Shown piece by piece: positions 43,712 through 63,617 of a stretch of 64,000 nt of DNA. Origin of the DNA: Gemmatimonadota bacterium (GTDB lineage Bacteria > Gemmatimonadota > Gemmatimonadetes > Palauibacterales > Palauibacteraceae). How positions within the stretch are numbered: position 1 is the stretch's first letter; each line of letters opens with the position of its first letter. The position numbers and the translations under genes were made by a program. Location: contig OY762926.1 in assembly GCA_963666735.1 (NCBI GenBank), positions 1,824,001 to 1,888,000 of the forward strand, written 5' to 3'. The notes beneath the pieces were generated by a model, which did no database searches, was not told where the DNA came from, and saw only the letters and a list, made by a program, of their open reading frames with translations.

Positions 43712-44923
43712 TCAGGATCGGAGAGAGACCCGCGCGAACGCTCGCTTGCCTCGCTGCACGAGATACTCGCCTTCTCCCAGGCGGAGGTCGCCCTCCCGGA
43801 TCACGTTCCCGTCCACCCGGACGGCCCCCTGGCGGATGAGTCGACCCGCCTCGGACGAGGAAGCCGCGAGCCCCGAATCGCGGAGGATGTGCGCGATCCA
43901 GAGCGTCTCCCGCTCTCCGAGAAGGAGCGACACGGAAGGGACGTTCTCGGGCACTTCCCGGCGTCGGTGCAGGCGGTCGAACGCTTCCCGCGCCTCGCCG
44001 GCCGCCTCCGCGCCGTGGTAGCGCGCCACGAGATCTCCGGCCAGCCACCGCTTGGCGGCGAGCGGATCGGTCCCCGCCTGTGCGCGACGGGTGGCGAGTT
44101 CCTCTCCGGAGGCGCTCGATACGAGCACGAGCCACTCGTCGAGCAGCGTGTCCGGGATCGACATCACCCGCCCGAACGTCTCTCTCGCCTCCATCGCGAT
44201 ACCGACGTAGTTGCCGTAGCTCTTGGACATCTTCCGATGCCCGTCGGTCCCGCGCAGAAGCGGCATGATGAGGCACACCTGCGGCTCCTGGCCCGCGCGT
44301 TCCTGCAGCGTCCTCCCCAGCAGCAGGTTGAACAGCTGGTCGGTACCGCCGAGTTCGACATCGGCCCGCAGGGCGACGGAATCGTACCCCTGCATCATCG
44401 GATAGAGGAATTCGACGAGGCTGATGGGACGTCCCTCCCGGTGGCGGGCCGCGAAGTCGTCGCGCTCGAGCATGCGGGCGACCGTGTACTGCGAGGTCAG
44501 TCGCAGGATGTCCGCCAACGCGAGGCCGGCGAGCCATTCGCTGTTCTTCCGGATCTCGGTCGTCTCCGGATCGAGGATGCGAAAGACCTGGTCTTCGTAG
44601 GTGGCCAGGTTCGACTCGATCTCCTCCTCGGACAGCATCGGCCGCGTCTCGTCCCGTCCGCTCGGGTCGCCCACGCGGGCCGTGAAGTCGCCCATCACGA
44701 AGACGACGCGGTGGCCGAGTTCCTGAAATGTCCGCAGCTTGTGGATCGACACGCCGTGGCCGATGTGGAGATCGGGCCGGGTCGGGTCGAACCCCTGTTT
44801 AATAAGGAGGGGCCGGTTCTCTCGTGCCGAACGCTCGAGCTTGGCCACGAGTTCGTCTTCCGGGACGATGGACTCGGCTCCCTCCCGGATCCGGTGGATC
44901 TGTTCGTCTACGGGGAGAAACAT
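43712..44923 (-). CDS. tyrS: tyrosine--tRNA ligase (copy 1)
   Basis: GFDPT..LHIGH, KMSKS, S4-like C-terminus. Confidence 0.97.
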
Positions 44924-45079
44924 CTGCGCCTGGGGTCGGTATATTCCCTATCGTTCCCGTCGCGGGTCGTTCCCGCCCGGGGGCAGCGTGACGATAGAAT
45001 CGGGCCGTCGGCGGTTCGATGCGAGGGGTGAGGTCCGGAAGAACGTGAACGGCCGGGAGATGGCAGGGGGGAAACGGGG

Positions 45080-47266
45080 ATGATCCGTCGACGACGAGTT
45101 GCGCGCCGGTCGCGGGCCGCGAAGAAGAAGAAGAAGAAGCGGACGCCCGCCCGCCTGGCCGGGCTCATACCGCGGCGGGCTCTGCTGCTCGCCGTTCTCA
45201 TCGGCGGCGGGCTGGGGGGGGGCGTGGCATGGCGCGGATGGACGCACCTGTGCGACGAGTGTCCCTCCATCGCGCAGATACACGCGTTCGAGCCCAAGGA
45301 AGCGACGAAGCTCTACGCGGCGGACGGATCGCTCCTTGCCGAACTCGCCATCGAGCGGCGGACCGCGATCCCCATGGAGGACCTCCCGCGACATGTGTAC
45401 AACGCCTTCATCGCGGTAGAGGACAAGCGCTTCTGGGGGCACGCGGGGGTGGATCTGCTGCGGACGACGCGGGCCTTTTTCGATTTCCTGATGAGGGGGT
45501 ACGGGGCCGCGGGCGGCAGTTCGATCACGCAACAGCTCGCGGGGAACATGTTCGAGAGTTCCGTGAACCGCCGCGACATCAGCATCCGGAGGAAGCTGCG
45601 CGAGATGCGGGTCGCGATCGATCTCGAGGGAGCTTACAGCAAGTGGGAGATCCTCGAAGCCTACCTCAACCAGATCAACTTCGGCGGCGTGTTCGGGGTT
45701 CAGGCCGCGGCGGAGCGTTACTTCGGGAAGACCGCTGCGCAGCTCAATCTGCCGGAGGCGGCGCTGCTCGCGGCCATCCCCCGGAATCCGGCGGGGTACA
45801 ACCCGATCCGGCGCCCCGAGCGGGCCATCGGGCGGCGCAATCTCGTCCTTCAACTGATGGCCGCCCAGGGACTCGTGAGCATCGAGGACGCCGAGGCGGC
45901 GAAGGCGTACCCGCTGGAACTCGCGAGGGGAGCCCGCATCGAGCAGGACGCGCCCTACTTCGTGGAATGGGTGCGGCAGCGGCTCTACGATCGATACGGC
46001 ACCGACATCTACGAGAAGGGGTTCCGCGTCTACACGACGCTCGACCCGGATCTTCAGACGGTCGCGGATTCCGCGCTGCTGGCCCAGCTGGAGTGGGTGG
46101 ACCGCCACCCGGCCTATCGCGGCGTCACCTTCGAGGAAGTGCGGGCGTGGCCGCCCGACAGCCTGTACCAGGTGAGCCGCGGAGGCGCGGAGATGCCCTA
46201 CGTGCAGGGGATGTTCATCGCGCTGGACGCGGCGACCGGTGACGTGCGGGCGATGGTGGGCGGGCGAGATTTCGGCGACTCCGAGTTCAACCGGGCGACC
46301 CAGGCCATTCGGCAGCCGGGGTCCGTGTTCAAGCCGTTCGTGTACGCGACGGCGATCGCGTCCGGCATCCCGGCATCGGAGATCATCTACGACCAGCCGT
46401 ACTACCTCGAGAATGTCGGCGGCGACCCCTACGCGCCGCGCAACTTCGACAACGACTTCAAGGGTCCGCTGACCCTGCGGCGGGCGCTGGCCCGGTCCAT
46501 TAACATCGTGGCGGTCAAGCTGGGGCAGCGCGTGGGCGAGGAATCCTTCGCGCAGATGGCCGAGCGCATGGGCATCTCATCGAGTGTGCCGCGGGTGCCG
46601 TCGGCCGCGATCGGCTCCATGGACGTTCGTCCGATCGAGATTGCCAGCGCCTACAGCACCTTCGCGAACCTCGGCGTCCGCGTCTCTCCCCGGTCGATCC
46701 TCCGCGTGGAGAGCAGGGACGGCCGCGTGCTCTGGGAGAGCCGGGTCCAGCGCGAGCGGGTGCTGGAGCCGGACATCGCCTGGATCGCCCAGTCCATGCT
46801 GCGCGACGCGGTGGACCAGGGTACCGGGACGCTGGCGGTGAGGTCTCGCTATGCGATTCCCTTCTCCATACCGGTAGCGGGCAAGACGGGGACGACGAAC
46901 GATGCGACGAACACCTGGTTCGTCGGGCTCACGCCGGACCTCGTGACGACCACGTGGATCGGGCTCGACCGGCCCCGGCGCATCTATACGGGCGCCACGG
47001 GGGGAGGCACGGCGGCGCCGGTCGGAGCGGCGGTGCTCGCGCACTACTACGAGACGCACGAACACCCCGACGCGTGGGAACGACCGCCCGGCCTCATCGA
47101 GCGAACGGTGGACGAGACGACGGGACTGCTGTCCACGCGCTGGTGTCCGATCGACGTCAGCTACGTCGAGATCTACCTCGAGGGGACGGAACCGACCGAG
47201 ATGTGCGACGCGCATGGCCCGTGGAGCGCGCAGACCCCCGCCCGGCGGAATTTCGCGCCACACTAG
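45080..47266 (+). CDS. class A penicillin-binding protein, PBP1A family (copy 1, intact)
   Basis: EDKRF, GGSSITQQL, RKLRE; SVFK, SIN, KTG. Confidence 0.95.
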   Translation: MIRRRRVARRSRAAKKKKKKRTPARLAGLIPRRALLLAVLIGGGLGGGVAWRGWTHLCDECPSIAQIHAFEPKEATKLYAADGSLLAELAIERRTAIPMEDLPRHVYNAFIAVEDKRFWGHAGVDLLRTTRAFFDFLMRGYGAAGGSSITQQLAGNMFESSVNRRDISIRRKLREMRVAIDLEGAYSKWEILEAYLNQINFGGVFGVQAAAERYFGKTAAQLNLPEAALLAAIPRNPAGYNPIRRPERAIGRRNLVLQLMAAQGLVSIEDAEAAKAYPLELARGARIEQDAPYFVEWVRQRLYDRYGTDIYEKGFRVYTTLDPDLQTVADSALLAQLEWVDRHPAYRGVTFEEVRAWPPDSLYQVSRGGAEMPYVQGMFIALDAATGDVRAMVGGRDFGDSEFNRATQAIRQPGSVFKPFVYATAIASGIPASEIIYDQPYYLENVGGDPYAPRNFDNDFKGPLTLRRALARSINIVAVKLGQRVGEESFAQMAERMGISSSVPRVPSAAIGSMDVRPIEIASAYSTFANLGVRVSPRSILRVESRDGRVLWESRVQRERVLEPDIAWIAQSMLRDAVDQGTGTLAVRSRYAIPFSIPVAGKTGTTNDATNTWFVGLTPDLVTTTWIGLDRPRRIYTGATGGGTAAPVGAAVLAHYYETHEHPDAWERPPGLIERTVDETTGLLSTRWCPIDVSYVEIYLEGTEPTEMCDAHGPWSAQTPARRNFAPH

Positions 47267-47281
47267 CCGCTTACCCGCCGT

Positions 47282-48583
47282 TCAGGCGATCCGCTCCAGA
47301 ATCAGCGGTTGCGCCCCGGGTGGCTCGGGAGAGAGCCGGATCGCGTCCGTGAGGCGGTGGGCGGCCGTCGCGGCGCTCGCCGCGTCCGCCGCGTGTACGG
47401 TGAGGACAGGTTCGCTTTCGGAGACCCTCTCGCCCGCAATCCGGTGAAACTCGAACCCCACTCTCGGATCGACCGCATCCTCGACGCGCCGGCGACCGGC
47501 GCCGAGTTCCACCGAGGCGACGCCCACCCTGCGGGCGTGGACGTCGAGCCAACCGGAGCCGGGCGATCGGAAGGGTTCGCGGACCGGGGCCGAGGGGAGG
47601 CGCCCGGGATCGTCGGCCACCCGTGGGTCCCCTCCCTGGACCTCGATGAGCCGCGCGAAGCGCTCGAGCGCGACCCCGCTGTCCAGAATCGCTCCGAGTG
47701 CCGTCCGGGCCTCCCCGGCGTCGGGTGCGCCACCGACCGAGACGAGCAACTCGGCGCTCAGCGCGAGGGTGACTTCGCGTAGATCCGCGGGTCCCCCGCC
47801 CCTCAAGGTCTCGATCGCCTCTCGCACCTCCAGCGCGTTGCCGACGGTGCGGCCCAGGGGGGCGTCCATCGCGGTGAGGAGCGCGCTCGTCCGCACCCCC
47901 TCGGCTGCCGCGAGGTCGACCATCGTGCGCGCCAATCCACGCGCCTGCTCACGGTCGGCGATGAAGGCGCCGCGCCCGCACTTCACGTCGAGCACGAGCG
48001 CCCCGATCCCCTCCGCCACCTTCTTGGAAACGATCGAGGCCGCGATCAGGGGTGGGGAAGGAACGGTCCCCGTCACATCCCGGAGGGCGTAGAGACGACC
48101 GTCGAGCGGCGCGATTTCCTTCGTCTGGCCGATCATCGCGCAGCCGACGTCATCGAGAATGGCCTGAAACCGTACGAGATCCAGGGACACGTTGAACCCG
48201 GGGATCGCCTCGAGCTTGTCCAGCGTTCCGCCGGTGTGCCCGAGACCGCGGCCCGACATCATGGGGACGCGAAATCCGGCTTCGGCCAGGAGCGGCGCCA
48301 GGATGAGCGAGACCTTGTCGCCGACGCCGCCGGTGGAATGCTTGTCGACCGTCGGCGGACCGTCTTCCGAGAACCGCAGTCGCGCCCCGGACTCGATGAT
48401 CTCCCGCAGGAGGACGGAAAGCTCGGCGGGATCCAGCCCGCGGATGAACGCGGCCATGAGAAAGGCCGACATCTGATACTCGGCGACGCTTCCGTCGAGG
48501 TACGCGCGCAGGAAGGCCGCGAGTTCGTCGGACGAGAGCCGCTCGCCGTCTCGCTTCTTCTCGATGAGCCGGGTGGGGAGCAT
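47282..48583 (-). CDS. deoA: thymidine/pyrimidine-nucleoside phosphorylase (copy 1)
   Basis: DKHSTGGVGDK, SGRGLGHTGGTLDKLE. Confidence 0.93.
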   Translation of the reverse strand: MLPTRLIEKKRDGERLSSDELAAFLRAYLDGSVAEYQMSAFLMAAFIRGLDPAELSVLLREIIESGARLRFSEDGPPTVDKHSTGGVGDKVSLILAPLLAEAGFRVPMMSGRGLGHTGGTLDKLEAIPGFNVSLDLVRFQAILDDVGCAMIGQTKEIAPLDGRLYALRDVTGTVPSPPLIAASIVSKKVAEGIGALVLDVKCGRGAFIADREQARGLARTMVDLAAAEGVRTSALLTAMDAPLGRTVGNALEVREAIETLRGGGPADLREVTLALSAELLVSVGGAPDAGEARTALGAILDSGVALERFARLIEVQGGDPRVADDPGRLPSAPVREPFRSPGSGWLDVHARRVGVASVELGAGRRRVEDAVDPRVGFEFHRIAGERVSESEPVLTVHAADAASAATAAHRLTDAIRLSPEPPGAQPLILERIA

Positions 48584-48595
48584 GAGCCGCCAACC

Positions 48596-48624
48596 TTGTC
48601 CGGCCCCGGCCCCCTGTCTAGCTT
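48596..48624 (+). promoter_or_regulatory. promoter TTGTCC-17-TAGCTT; possible leaderless transcript for V4R-ruvX-mltG-thiE
   Basis: Both hexamers and the spacing are conserved in the diverged copies (61958-61986); ATG follows within ~7-9 nt. Confidence 0.6.
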
Positions 48625-48631
48625 TTTCGCG

Positions 48632-49129
48632 ATGATCTCCCCCACTCAGGCCCCTGCCGTGATCCTGCCGAGATCGGTCCTCGCGGATCTCTTTCACCGC
48701 TGCGCGAGCCTGGGCGACGCCGGCATCGCGGCGTTGAACGAGGCGGGGGACCGTACCGGCGCGGCGGCCGTCGCGCTGCTCGGCGATTCGCCGGACGCGC
48801 TTTCCGCGGCGGAGTTCTGGACCTTTCTGGACGAGATCCTCCGCAAGGCGGGCCTCGGGTCGATATCGTTCAAGCCGGGAGGAGGAGCTTCCGCCGCCAT
48901 CGCCTGGCGCGACTCGCCGGAGGCCACGACGGCCGGGAATGTCCGCTGCCACTTTTCGGCCGCGCTGTTGCGCGGCGTTCTGAGCCGTGTGGCGGACCGC
49001 GCGGTGGAGGTCGCCGAGGTGCAATGCAGCGGCGGCGGGGAGCCATGCTGGTTCGTGTTCGGATCCGCGGAGGCGATCGAACGACTGCGGATCGGTGGTC
49101 AATCGGGGGCCGGGGACCAGGCGCACTGA
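48632..49129 (+). CDS. V4R-domain-like protein
   Basis: GLGSI..., CHFSAALLRGVLS..., EVQCSGGGEPCWF pattern. Confidence 0.7.
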   Translation: MISPTQAPAVILPRSVLADLFHRCASLGDAGIAALNEAGDRTGAAAVALLGDSPDALSAAEFWTFLDEILRKAGLGSISFKPGGGASAAIAWRDSPEATTAGNVRCHFSAALLRGVLSRVADRAVEVAEVQCSGGGEPCWFVFGSAEAIERLRIGGQSGAGDQAH

Positions 49130-49131
49130 GC

Positions 49132-49596
49132 GTGCCCCGCGGTCGTTTGATGGCGCTCGACTACGGCCGGCGCCGCATCGGGGTGGCCGTCACGGATCCG
49201 ACACAAACGATCGCGGCGCCCCACGGCGTGGTGGAGAGACCCAACCGACGGGCTCCGGGAACCGCGATCCCGGGCGCGCTGACCGAACTCGTGGCGGAAA
49301 TGGATCCGTCCGGCATCCTCGTGGGTATTCCGTTCTCGATGGATGGGACCGCAGGCGAGATGGCTGAAGAGGCGCGGGCCTTCGCCCGGGCTTTGGAGGA
49401 AGCGACGGGAGTACGAACGATCGAGTGGGATGAGCGGTTGTCCACCGCCCGGGCGGAACGAGAGATCCTCAGCATGGATCCGCCTCGAGGCCGGCGGCGG
49501 CGGAAGGGCCGGACGGACGAAATGGCCGCGGCGCTGATGCTCGCCGCTTACCTGCGCAGCGCCCCTGCGGGTGCCGGCGTCCCCCGAGGCCCGTGA
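49132..49596 (+). CDS. ruvX: RuvX/YqgF pre-16S rRNA nuclease (copy 1)
   Basis: ALDYGRRRIGVAVTD, VGIP, WDERLST, DEMAA. Confidence 0.93.
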   Translation: MPRGRLMALDYGRRRIGVAVTDPTQTIAAPHGVVERPNRRAPGTAIPGALTELVAEMDPSGILVGIPFSMDGTAGEMAEEARAFARALEEATGVRTIEWDERLSTARAEREILSMDPPRGRRRRKGRTDEMAAALMLAAYLRSAPAGAGVPRGP

Positions 49597-50624
49597 AACT
49601 CCTGCCGAAACGGACGGGCGTTCGCCTGCTCCTCGCCGCTCTCGCTGCCCTCGCGCCCGTGGCATACGGGTTCTTCTCCGTCGAGTTCCGGGGCCGCGGC
49701 GTTCCCGATGGGTCGGTGGTCGAGGTCCTTGTCCCGGATGGCGCCGCGTCGCTCGAGGTCGCCGGCGTACTCCGGGCGGCGGAGTTGATCTTCCATCCCC
49801 GGATCTTCGACGCGTACGTGCGCCTCAAGGGTCAGGGGCGACAACTGAAGGCCGGCCGGTACGAGATTCCGCGCGGAGCCCCATATCCATACCTGCTCGA
49901 AGCGCTTCGAACCGGAGCGGTCGTGACGACGCCGCTCACGATCCCGGAGGGTCTTCGGGTCCCGCAGGTGGCGGAACGCCTGGCGGTCTACGTCGGCGAT
50001 TCGACCGCGACCGTCCTTGCCTGGCTGACGGATCCGAAGCGGATCGATGAGCTGGAGGTGCCGGGCCCCACGCTGGAGGGGTACCTGTTCCCGGAGACCT
50101 ATCGATTCGCCGATGGTGTCGGAATCCCGGTCATCGTCCGGGCGATCGTCGGACGGTACAGGGGTTTCTGGGGGATGGAGGAGCGCGCTCAAGCTGCCGC
50201 GCTCGGCCTCGATGAACGAGAGATCGTGACGCTCGCGAGCATTGTCGAGAAGGAAGTCCGGTGGGACGACGAGCGTTCGGTGGTCGCGGGGGTCTACTGG
50301 AACCGCCTTCAGCGCGACATGCTGCTGCAGGCGGATCCCACGGTGCAGTACGCCCTCGGCGAGCCGCGCGCACGCCTGCTCTACCGCGACATCGACTCCG
50401 TCGCCGATCACCCCTACAACACCTACACGCAGCAGGGACTGCCGCCCGGGCCCATCGCTTCGCCGGGCGCGGCCTCGCTGCACGCCGCCCTCCGGCCCGC
50501 CGACCACGAGTACATCTTCTTTGTGGCACGAAATGACGGCTCGCACGAGTTCACCCGGACGCTGCGCGAGCACAACAACGCGATAAACCGGATACGCCTC
50601 GACCGCGAGCCGGCGGAACGGTAG
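49593..50624 (+). CDS. mltG: endolytic transglycosylase MltG (copy 1, intact)
   Basis: TIPEG, LEGYLFPETY, LASIVEKE, LQADPTV, GLPPGPI. Confidence 0.95.
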   Translation: MKLLPKRTGVRLLLAALAALAPVAYGFFSVEFRGRGVPDGSVVEVLVPDGAASLEVAGVLRAAELIFHPRIFDAYVRLKGQGRQLKAGRYEIPRGAPYPYLLEALRTGAVVTTPLTIPEGLRVPQVAERLAVYVGDSTATVLAWLTDPKRIDELEVPGPTLEGYLFPETYRFADGVGIPVIVRAIVGRYRGFWGMEERAQAAALGLDEREIVTLASIVEKEVRWDDERSVVAGVYWNRLQRDMLLQADPTVQYALGEPRARLLYRDIDSVADHPYNTYTQQGLPPGPIASPGAASLHAALRPADHEYIFFVARNDGSHEFTRTLREHNNAINRIRLDREPAER

Positions 50625-50637
50625 GACGAGAAGAACC

Positions 50638-50910
50638 ATGCCCGGCTCGCCCACGTCAGATGGCTGGCCTCTGATGGTGATCACGCACCCGCGGCCCGCC
50701 TGCGGCCAGCCGCTCGAGCGGGTCGTGGCCGAATGCGTGGACGCCGGGGCACCCGCGATCCAACTCCGGGACAAGACCGCGGACGGCCGGGCGCTCGCCA
50801 CGACCGCCGCGAGGCTCCGCGCGATCACGGAGTCCGCAGGCTCCAACCTGATCGTGAACGACCGTCTCGATGTCGCGCTCGCCACCGGCGCGGACGGCGT
50901 CCATCTCGGT
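50638..50910 (+). pseudogene. thiE: thiamine-phosphate synthase, N-terminal half only (copy 1, cut at the inversion junction)
   Basis: IQLRDK, IVNDRLDVALA, ADGVHLG, then homology stops abruptly at ~50910. Confidence 0.85.
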
Positions 50911-50929
50911 CGAGAGGCTTACGGGAAGC

Positions 50930-51535
50930 TTAGGGACGCCGGGCGAGATTGAGGAGGCTGCGCACAACCTGGGAGGGCTCGGGGGCGTGCATGACCGCGC
51001 CCAGGACGGCGATGGCGGCGCCGGTGGCGAAGACGGCTGGGGCGTTACGGGCGGTGATGCCCCCGATGCCGAAACAGGGAATCCCGCTTGAGCGAAGCAC
51101 GGCTCGCACGCGCTCGGGACCGACGGCCTCATGGGCCAGGCCGGGCTTGGAGTGCGTCCCGAACACGGCCCCGACGCCGAGATAGTCGGCGCCGGCGCGG
51201 GCCGCGCGGCGGGCTTCGGTGGGATCGTCGGTGGAGTAACCGATGAGGAAGCCCTTGGGAGCGAGTTCGCGCGCGGCGTGGAGGGGGAGGTCGTCCGGGC
51301 CGAGGTGGACGCCGTCGGCCCCGGCGGCGAGGGCGACGTCTAGGCGGTCGTTGACGATGAGAAGCGCGCCGGAGCCGTCCATGGCGGCGCGGAGGGCCGC
51401 GGCTTGGGCGGTGAGCGCCCGTGCGTCGGCGGTCTTGTCGCGAAGCTGAATGACCGGCACCCCGGCGGCCACGCACTCGGCGACGACTTGGTGCAGGGGG
51501 CGACCGCTGCGCGGGCGGGGATGCGTCAGCACCAT
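50930..51535 (-). CDS. thiE: thiamine-phosphate synthase (copy 2, complete)
   Basis: QLRDK, NDR, GVHLG, GADYLGVGAVFGTHSK, IGGI. Confidence 0.92.
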   Translation of the reverse strand: MVLTHPRPRSGRPLHQVVAECVAAGVPVIQLRDKTADARALTAQAAALRAAMDGSGALLIVNDRLDVALAAGADGVHLGPDDLPLHAARELAPKGFLIGYSTDDPTEARRAARAGADYLGVGAVFGTHSKPGLAHEAVGPERVRAVLRSSGIPCFGIGGITARNAPAVFATGAAIAVLGAVMHAPEPSQVVRSLLNLARRP

Positions 51536-51576
51536 GACCCGGGCGGCCGCCAGGCGCGAGCGTGGGCCGGGCGGCG

Positions 51577-52550
51577 TCAGCGTTGGGCGGCGTCGCGCGC
51601 GAGCCGGATGCGGTTTCGGGCGTCGTTGTGCTCGCGCAGCGTGCGCGTGAACTCGTGCCGCCCGTCACCCCGCGCCACGAAGAAGATGTAGTCGTGCTCG
51701 GCGGGGTGGAGGGCGGCGCGCAGCGACGCGGCCCCCGGCGAGGCGATCGGACCCGGCGGCAGCCCCGGCTGCGTGTACGTGTTATACGGGTGATCCGCGA
51801 CCGAATCGATATCGCGATACAGGAGCCGCGCGCGCGGTTCCCCGAGGGCGAACTGCACGGTCGGATCGGCTTGGAGGAGCATCCCCCTCCGCAGACGGTT
51901 CCAATACACGCCGGAGACGGTGCGCCGCTCGTCCCCCCATAGGACCTCCTTCTCGACGATACTGGCGAGCGTCACGACCTCCCGCTCCTCCATCCCGATT
52001 TCAGCGGCGCGCGCGCCCTCCTCCTCACCCCAGAACGCCTTGTACCGGCCGACCATGGCGGTCACGATCGCCGGGACCCCGACCCCTTCCGCGAAGCGGT
52101 ACGTCTCGGGGAAGAGGTAGCCCTCGAGCGTGGGGCCTCTCCCGTGTACTCCGCGATCCGTTCCGCCACGGCTTCGACCCGCAGGCCCTCCGGGATCGTG
52201 AGCGGGGTGGTGGCGACGGCCCCGTCGCGCAGAACCTTGAGCAGGTAGGCGTACGATGCACCGCGCGGGATTTCGTACCGGCCGGCCTTCAGGACTCGCG
52301 CCGCACCCCGAAGGCGAACGTAGGTGTCGAAGATGCGCGCATGGAAGATCAGCTCCTCCGCCTCGAGAAGACGCGCGATCTGCCGCGACGAGAAGCCCGC
52401 GGGCACGCGGATATCGATCGCCGATCCATCCGGGATGCCGGGTCCCCGAAACTCGGTGGAAAGGAACCCGTACACCACCGGCGCCGCGGCCACCAACGCG
52501 GCGGCGAGCAGACCGCGGCGCGTCCTCGGTGGCGGCGGCGCGCGGGTCAT
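51577..52550 (-). pseudogene. mltG: mltG copy 2, frameshifted by an internal deletion
   Basis: N- and C-terminal halves are in different frames; ~64 nt missing at ~52138 relative to copy 1. Confidence 0.88.
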
Positions 52551-53011
52551 GAGCCGGGGGCACGGATCGGGCCGGCGGGGCGCATGGGGCCGGCGGTCGC
52601 GCCGCTCCGCAGATACGCGGACAACATCAGAGCCGCCGCCAGCTCGTCGGTTCGCCCCTTCAGCCGCCGTTTGGCGCGCGACAGCGCCATGCCGGCGAGC
52701 TCTCGCTCGGCGCGCGCCGTCGAGAGCCGCTCGTCCCACTCGGCGGTGCGGACACCCGTGGCCTCCTCAACGGCTCGCGCGAAGGTCCGCGCCTCGGTGG
52801 CCATCGCACCCGCCGTCCCATCCATTGAGAAGGGAATCCCCACCAGAATGACGGCGGGCTCCAGCTCCGCCACGAGCGCCACCAGCGCGTCAGGCACCGT
52901 GGCCACCGGATCGGCGGGGGAACGGTCGACCACGCCGTGCGGGGCCGCGATCGTCCGGGTTGGATCCGTCACGGCGACACCAATGCGCCGCCGGCCGTAG
53001 TCAAGCGCCAT
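52547..53011 (-). CDS. ruvX: RuvX/YqgF (copy 2)
   Basis: MALDYGRRRIGVAVTD...WDERLST. Confidence 0.9.
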   Translation of the reverse strand: MALDYGRRRIGVAVTDPTRTIAAPHGVVDRSPADPVATVPDALVALVAELEPAVILVGIPFSMDGTAGAMATEARTFARAVEEATGVRTAEWDERLSTARAERELAGMALSRAKRRLKGRTDELAAALMLSAYLRSGATAGPMRPAGPIRAPGS

Positions 53012-53031
53012 CAGCCGGCTCCCCGGCGGGG

Positions 53032-53157
53032 TCAGGTCCACGGCCCCCCCGCGAGCCAAGTGTGCGCATACGACGGTTGGCCGGTGGGGCTGCGCGTGGG
53101 GGCCGAGCAGGCGGCGCTCGGGGGGAGGACGCCGGCGAGCGGGGTGGAGGGCTTCAT
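53032..53157 (-). pseudogene. remnant at the position of the V4R gene
   Basis: Same promoter and ATG position as copy 1, but only a 41-codon ORF remains. Confidence 0.6.
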
Positions 53158-53265
53158 CGGAACCGAAAGCTAGACAGCGGACCGGGGCCGGACAAGCTTT
53201 GCCCCGCACCGTCACCACAAGCGGCCGGGTCGCGGCGGCGCCCCGTTACCAGTAAGGAGAGGCGA

Positions 53266-54567
53266 TTGCTCCCAACCCGAGTCATCGAGAAGAAGCGGGA
53301 CGGCGGACGGCTCAACGATGACGAGCTGCGGACGTTCCTACGGGCGTACCTCGACGGTGACGTCGCCGACTACCAGATGTCGGCCTTCCTCATGGCGTCC
53401 TTCATCCAGGGCCTCGCTGCGGGTGAGCTCTCGGTGCTCACCCGGGAGATCATCGCGTCCGGCGCGCGCCTCGAGTTCGCGGACTTGGGTGGACCGCTGG
53501 TGGACAAGCACTCGACGGGAGGCGTCGGCGACAAGGTGTCGCTCGTGCTCGCGCCACTGCTTGCCGAGGCAGGGCTGCGCGTCCCCATGATGTCGGGCCG
53601 CGGTCTGGGGCACACCGGCGGAACGTTGGACAAGCTTGAGGCCATCCCGGGGTTCCAGGTGTCTATCGGTCTCGACCGCTTCCGCGCCATCCTGGACGAC
53701 GTGGGCTGCGCGATGATCGGCCAAACGACGCAGATCGCGCCGCTCGACGGCCGGCTCTACGCCCTCCGCGACGTGACCGGAACCGTGCCCTCAACGCCGC
53801 TCATCGCCGCCTCCATCGTCTCCAAGAAGGTGGCCGAGGGGATCGGCGCGCTGGTGCTTGACGTGAAGTGCGGCCGGGGTGCCTTCATGACCGATGAGCG
53901 CCGCGCGCGTGAGCTGGCCCAGACGATGGTCGCGCTCGCGGCCGCCGAGGGCGTGCGCACCACCGCCCTGCTCACGGCCATGGATGCGCCGCTGGGCCGC
54001 GCGGTGGGCAACGCCCTCGAAGTACGTGAAGCCATCGAAACGCTGCGGGGCGGCGGACCCGCGGACCTGCGGGCGGTGACGATCGCCCTCGCCGCGGAGC
54101 TCCTCGTTTCCGCGGGGCGCGCGACCGGTGCCAAGCAAGCCACGGCGACACTTGCCCCGATCCTCGAGAGCGGCGGCGCGCTCGGGCGCTTCGCCCGCCT
54201 CATCGAGGCCCAGGGGGGCGACCCGCGCGTGGCCGACGACCCCGGGCGCCTCCCTGTGGCGGCGGGCCGCACACCGTTTCGATCGCCCGGCGCGGGCTGG
54301 CTCGATGTTCACGCGCTCGAAGTCGGGTTCGCGTCGGTCGAGCTGGGGGCGGGCCGCCGCCGCGTCGATGACGCGGTGGATCCGACGGTCGGCTTCGAGT
54401 TTCACCGCGTCCAGGGCGACCGCGTGTCTGAAGGCGAAACCCTCGTCACGGTCCACGCGGCCAATGAGGCGGATGCCCGCCGGGCGCTCGACCGCCTCGT
54501 CGGGGCGGTCAGGCTTTACCCCGAACCTCCGCCTCCGCCGCGTTGGATCCTCGGTCGGATGGCGTGA
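53266..54567 (+). CDS. deoA: thymidine phosphorylase (copy 2)
   Basis: TTG start after AAGGAGAGG; same length as copy 1 (1302 nt). Confidence 0.92.
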   Translation: MLPTRVIEKKRDGGRLNDDELRTFLRAYLDGDVADYQMSAFLMASFIQGLAAGELSVLTREIIASGARLEFADLGGPLVDKHSTGGVGDKVSLVLAPLLAEAGLRVPMMSGRGLGHTGGTLDKLEAIPGFQVSIGLDRFRAILDDVGCAMIGQTTQIAPLDGRLYALRDVTGTVPSTPLIAASIVSKKVAEGIGALVLDVKCGRGAFMTDERRARELAQTMVALAAAEGVRTTALLTAMDAPLGRAVGNALEVREAIETLRGGGPADLRAVTIALAAELLVSAGRATGAKQATATLAPILESGGALGRFARLIEAQGGDPRVADDPGRLPVAAGRTPFRSPGAGWLDVHALEVGFASVELGAGRRRVDDAVDPTVGFEFHRVQGDRVSEGETLVTVHAANEADARRALDRLVGAVRLYPEPPPPPRWILGRMA

Positions 54568-54683
54568 CACTAACCCGCACGCCTCGGCAATTCGTTTCGC
54601 GGCGGCCGACGGGGCTCCGGACGGCAGCTGAGGCGCGTCCGTGCTGGCCCGCGCTGCTGCGTATAGTGCGTGTGGCGTTGTAC

Positions 54684-56925
54684 TTAGCGCGGGGCTAGGT
54701 GGCGGCGGAGGGGGGCGCGGGCGCTCCACGGGCCGTGCGCATCGCACATTTCGGTCGGCTCGGTGCCCTCGAGGTAGATCTCGACGTAGCTGAGTTCGAC
54801 CGGGCACCATCGCGTCGAGAGCAGGCCCGTGGTCTCGTCCACGGTCCGCTCGATCAGGCCCTGCGGCCGTTCCCACGGATCGGGGTGCGGATGCCTCTCA
54901 TAATAATGAGCCAGCACGGCCGCGCCGACGGGTGCCGCCGTTCCGCCGCCCGTCGCCCCCCGGTAGATCCGGCGGGGCCGGTCAAACCCAACCCAGGTCG
55001 TGGTGACAAGATCAGGCGTGAGTCCCACGAACCACGTTCGTGGCGTCGTTGGTCGTGCCCGTCTTGCCCGCCACCGGCACCGTGAACGGGATCGCATACC
55101 GGGAGCGCACCGCCAGCGTGCCCGTGCCCTGGTCCACGGCGTCCCGGAGCATGGACTGGGCGATCCACGCGATGTCCGGCTCAAGCACGCGCTCCCGCTG
55201 CACCGGGCTCTCCCACAGCACCCGGCCCTCCTTGCTTTCGACGAGCAGGATGGACCGGGGAGAGACGCGGACGCCGACGTTGGCGAAGGTCGTGTAGGCG
55301 GTCGCGACCTCGATCGGCCGCAGGTCCACGGAACCGATCGCGGCGGAGGGAACCCTGGGCACGCGCGAGGCGACGCCCATGCGCTCGGCCATCTGCGCGA
55401 ACGACTCCTCGCCGACGCGCTGCCCCAGCTTGACCGCGACGACGTTGATCGAACGGGCCAGCGCCCGGCGCAGCGTCAGGGGCCCCTTGAAGTCCTCCTC
55501 GAAGTTGGCGGGGGCATAGGGGTCGCCCCCGACGTTCTCGAGGCAGTAGGGCTGGTCGTAGATGATCTCGGACGCGGGAATCCCGGACGCGATCGCGGTC
55601 GCGTACACAAACGGCTTGAACACCGATCCCGGCTGGCGGAGGGCCTGCGTCGCGCGGTTGAATTCCGAGTCGCCGAAATCCCGCCCGCCCACGAGGGCGC
55701 GCACATCGCCCGTTGCCGCGTCGAGGGCGATGAACATCCCTTGGAGGTACGGCATCTCCGCGCCTCCGCGGCTGACTTGGTACAGGCTGTCCGGCGGCCA
55801 TGCCCGCACCTCCTCGAAGGTGACGCCGGAAAAGGCCGGGTGCCGGTCCACCCACTCCAGCTGGGCGAGCAGGGCCGAGTCGGCCACCGCCTGCAGATCC
55901 GGGTCGAGCGTCGTGTAGACCCGGAATCCCTTCTCATAAATGTCCGTCCCGTAGCGGTCGTAGAGACGCTGCCGCACCCACTCCACGAAATAGGGCGCCT
56001 CCCGCTCGATGCGCGCTCCCCGCGCCAGCTCCAGCGGATACGCCTTGGCGGCCTCGGCGTCCTCCACGCTAACCAGGCCCTGCGCCGCCATCAGCTCGAG
56101 GACCAGATTGCGGCGGCCGATGGCCCGCTCCGGCCGGCGGAGCGGATTGTACCCGGCGGGATTCCGCGGGATCGCCGCCAGCAACGCCGCCTCCGGCAGG
56201 TTCAGCTGGGCGGCGGTCTTTGCGAAGTACCGCTCCGCCGCCGCCTGAACGCCGAACACACCGTCGAAGTTGATCTGGTTGAGATAGGCCTCGAGGATCT
56301 CCTGCTTGCTGTACGCGCGCTCGAGGTCGATGGCGACGCGCATCTCCCGCAGCTTGCGGCGGACCGTAATGTCCCGGCGGTCCACGGACCCCTCGAACAT
56401 GTTCCCCGCGAGCTGCTGCGTGATCGAGCTTCCGCCCTGCGCGCCATATCCTTTAATTAGGAAGTCCGCGAACGCGCGCGCGGTCCGCCACGGATCGACG
56501 CCCGCGTGCGCCCAGAAGCGCTTGTCCTCGATCGCGATGAACGCGTTGTACACGTGCCGCGGGAGCTCGTTCATCCGGATCGGCGTGCGGCGCTCGACGG
56601 CAAGCTCCGCGAGGAGGGACCCGTCCGCCGCGTAGAGCTTCGTCGCCTCCTTCGGCTCGAAGGCGTAGATCTGGGCGATGGATGGGCACTGGTCGCACAC
56701 ATGCGTCCAACCCCGCCACGTGACGCCGGCCCCGAACGTGGCCCCCACCAGAATCGCGAGCGCCGCCGCCTTCCTCAACCAAGCCACGGCGCCACCTCGC
56801 CGGCGAGTCCGCAGGCCCCGCGCCGGGCTTGGGCGAGTTCTTCCGCGTCGTCCGCGTCCGCGCCTCCGTCCGCGCGACCGCCTGGCGGCGCGTCTCCGCC
56901 GGTTTGGCCGCGCGCGGCGGCTCAT
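54684..56925 (-). pseudogene. PBP1A copy 2, frameshifted after the KTG motif
   Basis: 2-nt loss at ~55036 moves the WFVG... C-terminus into another frame. Confidence 0.85.
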
Positions 56926-57132
56926 GGCGCCGTACCTGGGAATCGCCCCGGTTTGCCCGGGGGGCGCGGTGTGCGCGCCACGGTGTGCAAGCCCCTCACG
57001 CGTCCCTCCAACCTCGTCCCCTCGCTCCCCTCGTCCCCGAACCGCTCGCGTCCGGCCGCCGAGAGACCGATTCTATCGCGACGCGGCTTCCGGCGGGAGC
57101 CATCACCTCGATACTACCGACCCTTGGCGCGG

Positions 57133-58344
57133 ATGTTTCTCCCCGTAAACGAACAACTCAAGCGAATTCGAGAGGGGGCCGAGCGCATCGTGCCGGAAGG
57201 CGATCTCGCCGCCAAGCTCGAGCGCGCCACGCGCGCGCGTAGGCTCCTCATCGTCAAGCAGGGTTTCGATCCAACCCGGCCGGACCTCCACATCGGGCAC
57301 GGCGTGTCGATCCATAAGCTGCGGACGTTCCAAGAGCTCGGGCACCGCGTGGTCTTCGTGATGGGCGACTTCACGGCCCGGGTCGGCGACCCGAGCGGGA
57401 GGGACGATACGCGGCCCATGCTGTCGGAGGAGGAGATCGAGGCGAACCTGGCCACGTACGAGGACCAGCTCTTCCGCATCCTCGATCCGGACACCACGGA
57501 AATCCGGAGGAACAGCGAGTGGCTGGCGGGCTTGAGGCTCGCCGATATCCTCCGCCTCACGTCGCAATACACGGTGGCGCGCATGCTCGAGCGCGACGAC
57601 TTCGCCGCCCGGCACCGCGAGGGGCGCCCCATCAGCCTCGTCGAGTTCCTCTATCCGATGATGCAGGGCTACGATTCCGTCGCGCTTCGCGCCGATGTCG
57701 AGCTCGGGGGCACGGACCAGCTCTTCAACCTGCTCTTGGGCAGGACGCTGCAGGAGCGGGCCGGGCAGGAGCCCCAGGTGTGTCTGATCATGCCGCTCCT
57801 CCGCGGGACGGACGGCCACCGAAAGATGTCGAAGAGCTACGGCAACTACATCGGGATTTCGACGCCGCCAAACGAGGCGTTCGGGCGCGTGATGTCGATT
57901 CCGGACGCGCTTCTCGACGAGTGGCTGGTGCTCGCCTCCGGCACCCATGGCAAGGAGATCGCGGCGCGCCGGGAGCAGGCCCGGACCGACCCTTTGGGCA
58001 CCAAGCGGTGGCTCGCCCGCAACATCGTGGCGCGGTACCACGGGACGTCCGCCGCCGCGACGGCGCGCGAGGCCTTCGACCGCCTCCACCGGCGCCGCGA
58101 AGTGCCCGAGGACATCCCCGCCGTCACTCTTGGCCTTGCGGAGCGCCAGACGGCTTGGATCGCGCACGTCCTCCGCGACACCGGCCTCGCCGCGTCCTCG
58201 TCGGAGGCGGGCCGGTTGATCCGCCAAGGGGCCGTGAGGATCGACGGCGACGTGGTCAGGGACCGCAACCTACAGCTCCCTGTGGGTGAGTACTTGGTCC
58301 AGCGGGGCAAGCGCCGCTTCACAGGCGTGTCGATCCAGCCCTGA
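57133..58344 (+). CDS. tyrS: tyrosine--tRNA ligase (copy 2, intact, 403 aa)
   Basis: HIGH and KMSKS; same length as copy 1. Confidence 0.95.
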   Translation: MFLPVNEQLKRIREGAERIVPEGDLAAKLERATRARRLLIVKQGFDPTRPDLHIGHGVSIHKLRTFQELGHRVVFVMGDFTARVGDPSGRDDTRPMLSEEEIEANLATYEDQLFRILDPDTTEIRRNSEWLAGLRLADILRLTSQYTVARMLERDDFAARHREGRPISLVEFLYPMMQGYDSVALRADVELGGTDQLFNLLLGRTLQERAGQEPQVCLIMPLLRGTDGHRKMSKSYGNYIGISTPPNEAFGRVMSIPDALLDEWLVLASGTHGKEIAARREQARTDPLGTKRWLARNIVARYHGTSAAATAREAFDRLHRRREVPEDIPAVTLGLAERQTAWIAHVLRDTGLAASSSEAGRLIRQGAVRIDGDVVRDRNLQLPVGEYLVQRGKRRFTGVSIQP

Positions 58345-58502
58345 CACGGCCGGCGGGGAGTCTCGCGCTGCCGATGGCGAGGGTTGGGGGGTGTCGACGA
58401 CCCGCCGCTCTCCGGCCATGAGGTCTCCAAGCCCCAAACCCTGATTGGAAGGAGATCTCTTGATCTGCGAGATGTGGGGCCTTAGGCTCCGAGTTCCGGG
58501 AG

Positions 58503-58542: not shown

Positions 58543-58553
58543 GTGGAGGCCTC

Positions 58554-59051
58554 ATGAGACGACTCGTACCGATACTGCTCGGACTGCTCGTTGCCAGCTC
58601 GTGCGTAGACGTTGGCACTGCGGGGCCCGGCTCAGCATCGGCTGTTTCCGGGGGTTTCGAACTGGGCGTCTTGGCGGACTGTGATCCCTCCGATGAGCAT
58701 CCCTGCCCGCCACCCCCGCCTCCACCCCCGCCACCCCCGCCGCAGCCACCCTGTCTGGAGTGTCCCGAGCCACCACCCCCACCGCCACCTCCGCCCCCAC
58801 CCCGGCCCGACCCGCCTTGCGGTCTCGATTGCCCGCCACCACTGCCAGTACCACCAAATCCGCCGCCGCCACCACCCCCGCCACCGCCGCCAGTGAATGC
58901 TTGTTTCTTTATGGCAGAGTACTGTTCGCTGTGCGAAGAAAATCCTATGCACCCATTGTATTGCGAGCAGTGTGAGCTTTACACAAAGCAGTGTGATGAC
59001 ATGGGTGACATGGGTGACACGCGGCGTCCGGACGGGCTCCGTGTGTGTTAA
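58554..59051 (+). CDS. polyproline/cysteine-rich putative lipoprotein
   Basis: GGAGG RBS; signal peptide ending VASSC; three poly-Pro tracts separated by Cys pairs; Cys-rich tail. Confidence 0.7.
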   Translation: MRRLVPILLGLLVASSCVDVGTAGPGSASAVSGGFELGVLADCDPSDEHPCPPPPPPPPPPPPQPPCLECPEPPPPPPPPPPPRPDPPCGLDCPPPLPVPPNPPPPPPPPPPPVNACFFMAEYCSLCEENPMHPLYCEQCELYTKQCDDMGDMGDTRRPDGLRVC

Positions 59052-59168: not shown

Positions 59169-59900
59169 GTGGAGATCGTGAAGGGCGCGGCGGCGGCGTC
59201 GCTGTACGGTTCGCGCGCGCAGAACGGCGTCATCGAGATCACGACGAAGCGCGGCACGAGCCTGCAGACGAACTCGCTCAACATCCTCGTTCGGGGGGAG
59301 TACGGGACCAGCCAGCTCGTCGGTGACGTTGGACTCACCCGTTCGCACCCGTACCTCATGAACGCCCAGGGCACGCTCTTCATCGATTCGGATGGCAACG
59401 AGGTCCAGTTCACGGACCTCAGCCGTCCCGGGTTCGGCGCGCCGGTGCTCGCCAACCAGATCAATCCCGGTGAACCCGGCGACTCGTTCACGTCGTTCGC
59501 CAACCAGGCGTTCCCGCACGAACTCTTCGACCACATGGACACGTTCTTCGATCCAGGCGAGACGATGGACGTCTACTCGGCCGTGACGGGCCGCTTCGGC
59601 GAGTCGAGCTTCCGCGTGAGCGTGGACCAGTTCATGGAGGGCGGCGTTGTGCGCTGCGCGCCCTGCATCGACAACCTCAGCACGCTCAACGCCGATCGCG
59701 TCGCGCAAGGCCTGACGCCCTTCGACGTCGGCCTCCCGGATGACGACGGCTACGAGCGCCAGAACGTCCGCCTGAACGTGGACACGCGCTTCGGCGACCT
59801 GGACATCGCCGCGAGCGGCTTCTACTCGCGCGCCGACCAGGACGACAAGGCGCTCGAGAACGGCGCCTTCAGCCAGTTGACGTTCGCTTCGCCTGCGGTC
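59169..59900 (+). pseudogene. internal fragment of a fourth SusC, closest to pair 2
   Basis: VEIVKGAAAASLYGSRAQ...FSQLTFASPAV; lacks the N-terminus and most of the barrel. Confidence 0.9.
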
Positions 59901-60469
59901 CATCCTGCTCGTCGAAAGCAAGGAGGGCCGGGTGCTGTGGGAGAGCCCGGTGCAGCGGGAGCGCGTGCTTGAGCCGGACATCGCGTGGATCGCCCAGTCC
60001 ATGCTCCGGGACGCCGTGGACCAGGGCACGGGCACGCTGGCGGTGCGCTCCCGGTATGCGATCCCGTTCACGGTGCCGGTGGCGGGCAAGACGGGCACGA
60101 CCAACGACGCCACGAACGTGGTTCGTGGGACTCACGCCTGATCTTGTCACCACGACCTGGGTTGGGTTTGACCGGCCCCGCCGGATCTACCGGGGGGCGA
60201 CGGGCGGCGGAACGGCGGCACCCGTCGGCGCGGCCGTGCTGGCTCATTATTATGAGAGGCATCCGCACCCCGATCCGTGGGAACGGCCGCAGGGCCTGAT
60301 CGAGCGGACCGTGGACGAGACCACGGGCCTGCTCTCGACGCGATGGTGCCCGGTCGAACTCAGCTACGTCGAGATCTACCTCGAGGGCACCGAGCCGACC
60401 GAAATGTGCGATGCGCACGGCCCGTGGAGCGCCCGCGCCCCCCTCCGCCGCCACCTAGCCCCGCGCTAA
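59896..60469 (+). pseudogene. PBP1A 3' fragment (copy 3) with the same frameshift as copy 2
   Basis: Mirror of 54684-55257. Confidence 0.88.
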
Positions 60470-60585
60470 GTACAACGCCACACGCACTATACGCAGCAGC
60501 GCGGGCCAGCACGGACGCGCCTCAGCTGCCGTCCGGAGCCCCGTCGGCCGCCGCGAAACGAATTGCCGAGGCGTGCGGGTTAGTG

Positions 60586-61887
60586 TCACGCCATCCGACC
60601 GAGGATCCAACGCGGCGGAGGCGGAGGTTCGGGGTAAAGCCTGACCGCCCCGACGAGGCGGTCGAGCGCCCGGCGGGCATCCGCCTCATTGGCCGCGTGG
60701 ACCGTGACGAGGGTTTCGCCTTCAGACACGCGGTCGCCCTGGACGCGGTGAAACTCGAAGCCGACCGTCGGATCCACCGCGTCATCGACGCGGCGGCGGC
60801 CCGCCCCCAGCTCGACCGACGCGAACCCGACTTCGAGCGCGTGAACATCGAGCCAGCCCGCGCCGGGCGATCGAAACGGTGTGCGGCCCGCCGCCACAGG
60901 GAGGCGCCCGGGGTCGTCGGCCACGCGCGGGTCGCCCCCCTGGGCCTCGATGAGGCGGGCGAAGCGCCCGAGCGCGCCGCCGCTCTCGAGGATCGGGGCA
61001 AGTGTCGCCGTGGCTTGCTTGGCACCGGTCGCGCGCCCCGCGGAAACGAGGAGCTCCGCGGCGAGGGCGATCGTCACCGCCCGCAGGTCCGCGGGTCCGC
61101 CGCCCCGCAGCGTTTCGATGGCTTCACGTACTTCGAGGGCGTTGCCCACCGCGCGGCCCAGCGGCGCATCCATGGCCGTGAGCAGGGCGGTGGTGCGCAC
61201 GCCCTCGGCGGCCGCGAGCGCGACCATCGTCTGGGCCAGCTCACGCGCGCGGCGCTCATCGGTCATGAAGGCACCCCGGCCGCACTTCACGTCAAGCACC
61301 AGCGCGCCGATCCCCTCGGCCACCTTCTTGGAGACGATGGAGGCGGCGATGAGCGGCGTTGAGGGCACGGTTCCGGTCACGTCGCGGAGGGCGTAGAGCC
61401 GGCCGTCGAGCGGCGCGATCTGCGTCGTTTGGCCGATCATCGCGCAGCCCACGTCGTCCAGGATGGCGCGGAAGCGGTCGAGACCGATAGACACCTGGAA
61501 CCCCGGGATGGCCTCAAGCTTGTCCAACGTTCCGCCGGTGTGCCCCAGACCGCGGCCCGACATCATGGGGACGCGCAGCCCTGCCTCGGCAAGCAGTGGC
61601 GCGAGCACGAGCGACACCTTGTCGCCGACGCCTCCCGTCGAGTGCTTGTCCACCAGCGGTCCACCCAAGTCCGCGAACTCGAGGCGCGCGCCGGACGCGA
61701 TGATCTCCCGGGTGAGCACCGAGAGCTCACCCGCAGCGAGGCCCTGGATGAAGGACGCCATGAGGAAGGCCGACATCTGGTAGTCGGCGACGTCACCGTC
61801 GAGGTACGCCCGTAGGAACGTCCGCAGCTCGTCATCGTTGAGCCGTCCGCCGTCCCGCTTCTTCTCGATGACTCGGGTTGGGAGCAA
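60586..61887 (-). CDS. deoA: thymidine phosphorylase (copy 3)
   Basis: Identical translation to copy 2. Confidence 0.9.
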   Translation of the reverse strand: MLPTRVIEKKRDGGRLNDDELRTFLRAYLDGDVADYQMSAFLMASFIQGLAAGELSVLTREIIASGARLEFADLGGPLVDKHSTGGVGDKVSLVLAPLLAEAGLRVPMMSGRGLGHTGGTLDKLEAIPGFQVSIGLDRFRAILDDVGCAMIGQTTQIAPLDGRLYALRDVTGTVPSTPLIAASIVSKKVAEGIGALVLDVKCGRGAFMTDERRARELAQTMVALAAAEGVRTTALLTAMDAPLGRAVGNALEVREAIETLRGGGPADLRAVTIALAAELLVSAGRATGAKQATATLAPILESGGALGRFARLIEAQGGDPRVADDPGRLPVAAGRTPFRSPGAGWLDVHALEVGFASVELGAGRRRVDDAVDPTVGFEFHRVQGDRVSEGETLVTVHAANEADARRALDRLVGAVRLYPEPPPPPRWILGRMA

Positions 61888-62141
61888 TCGCCTCTCCTTA
61901 CTGGTAACGGGGCGCCGCCGCGACCCGGCCGCTTGTGGTGACGGTGCGGGGCAAAGCTTGTCCGGCCCCGGTCCGCTGTCTAGCTTTCGGTTCCGATGAA
62001 GCCCTCCACCCCGCTCGCCGGCGTCCTCCCCCCGAGCGCCGCCTGCTCGGCCCCCACGCGCAGCCCCACCGGCCAACCGTCGTATGCGCACACTTGGCTC
62101 GCGGGGGGGCCGTGGACCTGACCCCGCCGGGGAGCCGGCTG

Positions 62142-63576: not shown

Positions 63577-63617
63577 CGCCGCCCGGCCCACGCTCGCGCC
63601 TGGCGGCCGCCCGGGTC

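Follow-up and report, generated by a model that had tools for sequence, protein, structure and literature searches.

A mirrored block of core genes beside the rRNA genes of a sponge-associated Palauibacter as a probable xenologous merodiploid

Layout of the locus

The stretch of DNA analysed here (the window, 64,000 nucleotides) belongs to the genome of a marine sponge-associated bacterium, Candidatus Palauibacter (G000 below), and comes from a single N-free contig of 3.98 Mb with 68.5% GC; coordinates are window positions, and those beyond 64000 are positions of the extended window. Those homologs of its ThiE and TyrS that carry a name belong to Candidatus Palauibacter, Gemmatimonadota. According to self-comparison, tyrS, PBP1A, deoA, a V4R-domain gene, ruvX, mltG, and thiE are present in two mirror-image sets: copy 1 comprises the genes left of 50909, and copy 2 (suffix 2, e.g., thiE2) those right of 50910. 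Gene identities were assigned by NCBIfam (tyrS, PBP1A, deoA, ruvX, mltG, and thiE) and Pfam (V4R) and agree, as does the mirror order, with a preliminary description made from the letters alone. The DNA identity of the copies is 71–83%. The TyrS proteins (403 amino acids each) differ at 14 of the first 47 residues, exactly as counted in that description, and at 71 in all; the DeoA alignment has no gaps across 435 positions. Across the 3.98-Mb genome, TyrS has no matches beyond these 2 genes, and matches of RuvX, MltG, and DeoA are confined to this locus.

Copy 1 begins with 3 intact genes that are native on the evidence given below: tyrS (43712..44923, minus strand, TIGR00234), PBP1A (45080..47266, plus strand, 728 amino acids, TIGR02074, 99.6% amino acid identity to the relative G017), and deoA/pdp (47282..48586, minus strand, NF004490/TIGR02644). 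These are followed on the plus strand by the V4R-domain gene (48632..49129, 165 amino acids, PF02830 above the cut-off), ruvX (49150..49596, intact, TIGR00250), and mltG (49593..50624, intact, 343 amino acids, TIGR00247). Native thiE (50638..50909, plus strand) was taken for a member of a complete set, but it is cut at 50909, ~91 codons in; its frame crosses junction 1 (50909/50910) into foreign DNA and stops at 50952. Since the ruvX-mltG-thiE operons converge, the join is tail-to-tail and not, as previously stated, head-to-head.

The foreign tract covers 50910–64243 (~13 kb) and adjoins the 5S-23S rRNA genes. Its first part, arm A (50910..55257, minus strand), is an inverted donor copy holding thiE2 (50930..51535, minus strand, intact, 201 amino acids, TIGR00693 above the cut-off), mltG2 (51577..52550, minus strand, 5' end approximate), ruvX2 (52547..53011, minus strand, intact), a V4R remnant, deoA2 (53266..54567, plus strand, intact in G000, 433 amino acids), and the 3' part of PBP1A2 (54684..56925, minus strand). 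Farther right lie tyrS2 (57133..58344, plus strand, intact in G000, 403 amino acids), an orphan Pro/Cys-rich open reading frame (ORF; 58554..59051, plus strand, 165 amino acids, signal-peptide-like start), and an internal fragment of a donor SusC/RagA gene (59169..59895, plus strand, partial TIGR04056, 81–86% identical to the 3 native SusC genes) that ends at junction 2 (59895/59896). Arm A' (59896..64000, on to 64243 past the window, plus strand) then runs as a direct donor copy from the 3' part of PBP1A2 to thiE2, and beyond it come a hairpin with a U run, 5S rRNA (64298–64414), and 23S rRNA (64493–67517). The preliminary description had closed the block at 58344. Arms A and A' are exact reverse complements of each other (4,348 bp, 100%), which places the deoA-thiE block in 3 copies: direct (47282–50909), inverted (within 50910–55257), and direct again (within 59896–64243).

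As a further correction to the preliminary description, copy 2 is not intact. PBP1A2 carries a 2-bp deletion near 55035 with a loss of ~95 C-terminal residues, mltG2 is frameshifted by a 64-bp deletion near 52136, and the deoA-ruvX interval (53012..53265) measures 258 bp vs 570 bp in copy 1 and retains only a 5' remnant of the V4R gene. As for the orphan ORF, it has no Pfam match and, among the 36 genomes of the genus compared, a strong match in G008 only. The segment that contains it (58345–59168) stands where the donor SusC gene would have its 5' part, and a 20-bp near-tandem repeat lies upstream (~58503–58542).

Origin of the two copies

Comparisons covered 36 genomes of the genus and 114 of the family, and the nucleotide trees held 21 rows (19 relatives picked from the genus, copy 1, and copy 2). 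Over ~7.3 kb copy 1 is 94% identical to G017 and 88–92% to ten further congeners; the nucleotide tree makes it sister to G017 (100/100), and protein trees agree. Copy 2 falls outside a 14-row clade containing copy 1 in both nucleotide trees (100/100 and 99/99). Synonymous divergence (dS) between the copies, named as a check in the preliminary description, is 0.73–1.19, and non-synonymous divergence (dN) is 0.06–0.17, about the distance of G000 to G010 or to G050. GC content at third codon positions is slightly higher in copy 2 for 5 of 5 genes. Judging by these trees and distances, copy 1 is native, and copy 2 is derived from a deep-branching, unsampled Palauibacter congener. Its position outside the copy-1 clade, together with high dS and low dN, therefore points to long purifying selection in another lineage and to lesions of recent date.

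Searches for the donor gave a best other DNA match of 87% among the genus genomes and 77% among the family genomes, and a top identity of 63% among the best 80 of 285 loci when JGI metagenomes were searched with ThiE2. Protein searches with 8,000 scored candidates each, own-allele variants aside, reached at most 73% for ThiE2 and 83% for TyrS2. A candidate donor TyrS (P0124, 95% identical to TyrS2) was ruled out as a mosaic of copy 1 and copy 2: on this 1,593-bp contig TyrS is of copy-1 type in the N-terminal part and of copy-2 type after it, which would reflect either gene conversion between mirror copies or misassembly. In a further relative, G016 (L013), TyrS is 85.7% identical to that of G000 and lies outside the clade of G016 PBP1A and DeoA, possibly owing to another allele replacement at this locus.

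Presence of the structure in independent data

Of 18 public runs, 17 hold part of the stretch 50000–59900 and 11 hold at least half of its words; 3 of these 11 are marked as a possible source, and the other 8, from three studies, hold 70–100% of the words. Runs X9–X11, with word shares of 0.06–0.07, and run X18 were not used. Contigs of 4 runs (X4, X8, X12, and X14) were compared with the tract. A contig was counted as bridging a junction if it had at least 31 letters on either side, and contig joints with sides below 30 letters were disregarded as likely coming from other organisms. Junction 1, across which the preliminary description had proposed to look for spanning reads, is bridged by a contig of X4 (50824–51877, no differing letters) and by one of X8, a coral metagenome (50777–51148). 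Arm A is a single 4,348-bp contig in both X12 and X14 (depth 29 and 48, respectively), while the native side and the middle segment between the arms have depths of 11.9 and 14.4 in X12, and 18–27 and 25.7 in X14. Contig depth is no copy number and these figures come from near-identical contigs, so they are taken only as consistent with two copies of the arm and with a middle segment at the depth of native DNA. Both assemblies break exactly at the positions predicted by a two-copy repeat. The orientation of the middle segment is beyond the reach of contigs.

Among the 114 family genomes, junction 1 is present in 2, G000 and G008. One G008 contig (C58) ends with its own copy-1 haplotype, the same junction 1, and 25 bp of arm A; at the end of another (C57), the copy-2 allele is joined to the rRNA and atp region of G008 itself. 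An insertion sequence (IS)-like sequence also lies at the C58 end (L030 19770–19919) and is 86% like G000:C1 2980095–2980244. For each of the exact proteins ThiE2, TyrS2, and TyrS1, the longest contig on record measures 4.13 Mb, which exceeds the 3.98-Mb genome and therefore suggests a second long assembly. On this evidence from contigs and genomes, the mirror block is real and not an assembly chimera.

Borders and proposed integration

At the right border, donor-type sequence is common to G000 and G008 as far as the 5S gene, taking in thiE2, the spacer, and the hairpin. The 5S gene does not vary among the 5 genomes aligned, of which the donor is not one. Past this gene, G000 resembles G017 and G006, while G008 resembles G011. 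The left border, junction 1, is a non-homologous fusion inside thiE with a microhomology of at most 2 bp, found with G024-, G006-, or G012-type thiE (3 of 11 non-carrier alleles) and shorter with the others. The donor breakpoint lies 3–4 nt beyond the U run of a strong hairpin (z −6.3, by folding). The hairpin before 5S would, according to this folding, end the rRNA transcript; a promoter and terminator scan of arm A' called none, the hairpin included. Junction 2 has a likely CGGTC overlap, deduced from SusC paralogs. Between the borders, ~435 bp of recipient DNA are gone (the 3' half of thiE and the spacer; L032 2767–3201 in G017 coordinates), and the missing half was not found elsewhere in the G000 genome. 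Native thiE is destroyed, and the insert therefore replaces DNA and does not merely add it. Neither this loss nor the 5S border, the exact 4.3-kb inverted repeat, or the sharing with a second species had appeared in the preliminary description.

The rRNA genes of G000 are unlinked, the single 16S (G000:C1 756965–758523) being 1.1 Mb from the 23S-5S unit (L001 4298–7517), itself located after the atp genes. In relatives (L029 8698–9338 and L032 4369–5008), the 23S gene holds a group I intron of ~640 bp, its site corresponding to 65464/65465 of the extended window, with an ORF that we take to be LAGLIDADG-like.

These borders are best explained by a xenologous merodiploid formed in three steps, namely integration, spread, and retention with decay, a reading that we regard as probable. 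In the first step, ~9 kb of donor chromosomal DNA (SusC'-tyrS-PBP1A-deoA-V4R-ruvX-mltG-thiE), in which thiE would natively adjoin 5S rRNA, may have recombined into a G008/G024-like recipient. The 5S(-23S) rRNA would have provided a homology anchor on one side only, with an illegitimate join inside native thiE at the opposite end; both ends are visible, and homology-facilitated illegitimate recombination is the mechanism they suggest. Starting from the rRNA, copying would have gone leftward ~9 kb along the donor, reversed, passed again over 4.35 kb up to the hairpin, and reversed once more onto native thiE. Two such template switches would duplicate the distal 4.35 kb in inverted form and thus give the 3 deoA-thiE blocks with the middle one inverted. 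Remnants of the middle segment in G008 are co-oriented with arm A' (native gene order), and the segment has therefore probably flipped between the arms in one of the lineages. As for the route of entry, such recombination relies on transformation with RecA-dependent integration; comEC is intact in G000, which makes transformation a possibility and nothing more.

Spread to a second species

G008 represents a second species with the same junction, the same donor allele, and deletions of its own. Across 2,399 bp of shared arm A' it differs from G000 at 5 positions (99.8% identity), compared with a background of 91.3% over 19.8 kb adjacent to the tract and, in three 20-kb samples, mostly 84–90%, with single pieces at 72–79% and 95%. 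The DNA left of junction 1 (48900..50909) appears co-transferred: by informative-site scan it has the haplotype of the G008/G024 clade, unlike the sister species G017, its left limit being approximate with a mosaic near 49800–50200. In the last 610 bp before the junction, G000 differs at 13 and 18 positions from the G008/G024 clade vs 68 from G017, and ruvX1-mltG1 of G000 move into that clade (100/99), away from G017. First integration therefore probably took place in a G008/G024-like genome. From a less eroded carrier the finished structure would then have entered the lineage of G000, a direction that these flanks favour, by ordinary homologous recombination that used the ruvX-mltG flank to the left and 5S rRNA to the right.

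The X8 contigs have six differing letters left of the junction and their own 390-bp deletion in tyrS2. This is a hint of a third haplotype and only a hint, because the contigs are of low depth and possibly joined across organisms. On the far side of the rRNA, the atp genes of G000 (69001–71400 of the extended window, L001 9001–11400) are 85–93% identical to G017 vs ~97% elsewhere, which suggests another introgressed patch.

Gene decay and retention of thiE2

Full-length copy-2 genes in G000 are tyrS2, deoA2, ruvX2, and thiE2, while PBP1A2, mltG2, and the V4R gene are broken. On contig C57, G008 keeps ruvX2 and thiE2 only: TyrS2 lacks residues 118–194, DeoA2 is broken, PBP1A2 is absent, and mltG2 has the same break as in G000. 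The orphan ORF is common to both. Thus, ruvX2 and thiE2 alone are full-length in both species. The decay of the redundant donor genes is observed, and redundancy is its presumable cause. The early breakage of both cell-wall genes (PBP1A2 and mltG2) fits an incompatibility of foreign complex members; two cases, however, prove nothing.

No intact native thiE was found in G000 or G008, and thiE2 with its twin in arm A' is the sole full-length canonical ThiE of G000; thiC and thiG are intact in both genomes. Another gene of the TMP-TENI family adjoins thiG in 5 of 5 genomes. Its product shares VNGR and SVH with a solved TenI and is without the ND, DD, and SK motifs of ThiE2 and a solved ThiE, motifs that we take to have catalytic roles in ThiE. 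Judged by these motifs, the paralog is TenI-like and not a canonical ThiE. With thiE2 as the one remaining full-length canonical thiamine-phosphate synthase, the tract cannot simply be lost, and lock-in by thiE2 would therefore be the simplest reason for its persistence, given the loss of native thiE, the retained thiC and thiG, and the TenI-like paralog. The outcome would be a xenologous displacement of thiE caught midway. Thiamine synthesis is described as a key trait of this order in PMC10469786.

A stronger version of this reading seems doubtful to us. It would have the tract, made non-removable by the loss of native thiE and the gain of two foreign copies, under positive selection for higher or altered vitamin B1 output in several co-resident sponge and coral Palauibacter species, with rRNA genes acting as natural portals for core-gene blocks of lineages too distant to exchange alleles in the ordinary way, and foreign PBP1A and MltG selectively silenced as incompatible.

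Alternative explanations

The preliminary description had offered three origins. That of a block taken up from a related species and set beside the native locus is supported; a chimeric join and an old duplication are rejected. A chimera of two co-occurring Palauibacter genomes, made during assembly or amplification, could be suspected because the genome is uncultured with a scored contamination of 4.67%, assemblers are known to stumble over exact inverted repeats next to rRNA, and contigs cannot check the middle-segment orientation. It is nevertheless extremely unlikely, given that G008 has the same junction on another haplotype with other sequence thereafter and its tract bears its own single-nucleotide polymorphisms and deletions; moreover, 8 runs not marked as possible source hold most of the words, X4 and X8 contigs bridge the junction, the middle segment matches native DNA in depth, and frameshifts in donor genes are not expected of a free-living donor. 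An old intragenomic duplication whose copies diverged in place would agree with their adjacency and with a dS near saturation. However, the 14 copy-1 alleles form a clade that excludes copy 2, and yet copy 2 occurs in just 2 of 36 genus genomes, it is 99.8% identical across two species with a native-gene dS of 0.23–0.28, and its low dN/dS implies long purifying selection with inactivating lesions that are recent; we thus give this origin hardly any weight.

Perfect 4.3-kb terminal inverted repeats in two species could also mark a mobile element inserted in thiE (a composite transposon, an integrative element, or a specialised transducing or gene transfer agent particle), and the IS-like sequence 25 bp beyond the junction in G008, as well as many dispersed 99–100% repeats in the genome, would suit it. 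We consider such an element improbable: the tract ORFs are chromosomal genes plus one orphan, with no recombinase among the ORFs scanned and no transposase or integrase among those annotated, the right border lies at 5S rRNA, flanking native DNA was co-transferred, and there is no target-site duplication, because the far half of native thiE is absent. Delivery of the DNA by a phage or gene transfer agent stays compatible with the three-step merodiploid. A rival that shares the same origin replaces selection by neutral retention and spread, with the 23S-5S locus as a recombination hot spot, possibly helped by the nuclease of the 23S group I intron, and with thiE2 surviving as a small target. 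Of 10 relatives checked, 2 (G008 and G017) have the intron, at a site 1.2 kb from the tract, and G000 lacks it; the flanks of G000 are mosaic elsewhere too, e.g., in the atp region. On the other hand, nearly all other donor genes, small ones such as V4R and mltG included, are damaged in at least one species, and no intact native thiE is left, yet thiC and thiG are retained. We rate neutral retention as rather unlikely, though it is the most serious of these rivals.

Several points speak against the three-step merodiploid itself. All 3 differences in G008 thiE2 are non-synonymous, including Gly179Arg (Ser in 7 of 7 congeners aligned), which is unlike purifying selection, and redundant ruvX2 is intact in both species too, so small target size could explain survival; both observations favour neutral retention. 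Contigs at junction 2 are 103 bp long and reach only 30 letters past it on one side, where the rule asks for 31, and a pattern scan of JGI metagenomes for junction 1 gave 0 matches. The 2-bp microhomology at junction 1 requires a G024-like recipient allele, and the native gene order of the donor is deduced from congeners because its genome was never seen.

Relation to known systems

Homology-facilitated illegitimate recombination is known in Acinetobacter baylyi, Pseudomonas stutzeri, and Streptococcus pneumoniae, and, as described in PMC2884548, has in common with the present case that one end is homologous and the other illegitimate, and that foreign DNA takes the place of the recipient DNA in between. 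Here, donor-type sequence reaches the 5S gene, which is identical in all genomes aligned, with host-type spacer after it, and the DNA between anchor and fusion is missing. In contrast to those systems, the present case is natural and comes from an uncultured symbiont, with 5S/23S rRNA as the presumed anchor and, as cargo, a homeologous core-gene block itself, plus an inverted duplication. The tandem inversion duplication of Salmonella, reportedly treated by Kugelberg et al. in 2010, has three copies with the central one inverted, later trimmed by deletions; all arms come from one chromosomal allele, and junctions fall at short palindromes or microhomologies. A block in triplicate with an inverted central copy (deoA-thiE) is found here too; however, the left arm is native and 71–83% identical to the two donor arms. 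One native and two donor-derived arms therefore indicate a hybrid made during or after gene transfer.

Introgression usually replaces alleles, whereas here a far more distant allele set appears to have been placed next to the native one and afterwards transmitted as a whole. Movement of core-gene DNA between species by homologous recombination is the shared feature (G000/G008 and ruvX1-mltG1), visible in a tract identity of 99.8% against a background of mostly 84–91% and in the tree switch of ruvX1-mltG1. PMC12615716 puts core-genome introgression at 2% of core genes on average and finds it commonest between close relatives. In S. pneumoniae, transformation-induced merodiploids, described in PMC3784515 as unstable direct tandem duplications of self DNA between repeats, share partial diploidy for essential genes with one copy free to break; the present duplication, in contrast, is inverted, xenologous, and found in more than one species. 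A literature search for the combination of an introgressed or xenologous tract, an rRNA or 5S anchor, and a merodiploid found no paper in a collection covering few subscription journals, and the titles and abstract openings of Palauibacter papers do not mention the locus. The mechanisms are known, and their combination is an unusual natural case, the mechanism and selection being those we infer.

Other features of the genome

Left of the mirrored block, at 27327–43347, the window holds three tandem SusC/RagA and partner pairs, 80–84% identical. Because the array is kept in G017, G011, G006, and G008, it is, on this comparison, old and separate from the tract event. The Pfam scan put no name on the three partners of 575–580 amino acids. 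Elsewhere, thirteen tRNA genes form two tight clusters on one strand (G000:C1 2289347–2294905), and long tandem repeats of a ~75-bp unit, which probably encode repeat proteins, lie at G000:C1 158503–162226 and 1255804–1258001. Self-BLAST of the genome also lists nearby diverged repeats, among which there may be more tracts like this one.

Implications

The locus offers a dated natural snapshot of xenologous gene displacement in which entry point, breakpoints, secondary spread, and order of decay are readable; two species serve as independent replicates, and there is possibly a third haplotype. Single-copy markers that are duplicated and diverged in a metagenome-assembled genome usually count as contamination, and this case shows that they can be genuine. 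Metagenomes allow a direct test of two questions: whether foreign core genes are anchored by rRNA, and which of them are purged first. A Palauibacter lineage is known from this fragment alone, and, if thiE2 is selected, the case would bear on thiamine supply, a key trait of the order according to PMC10469786.

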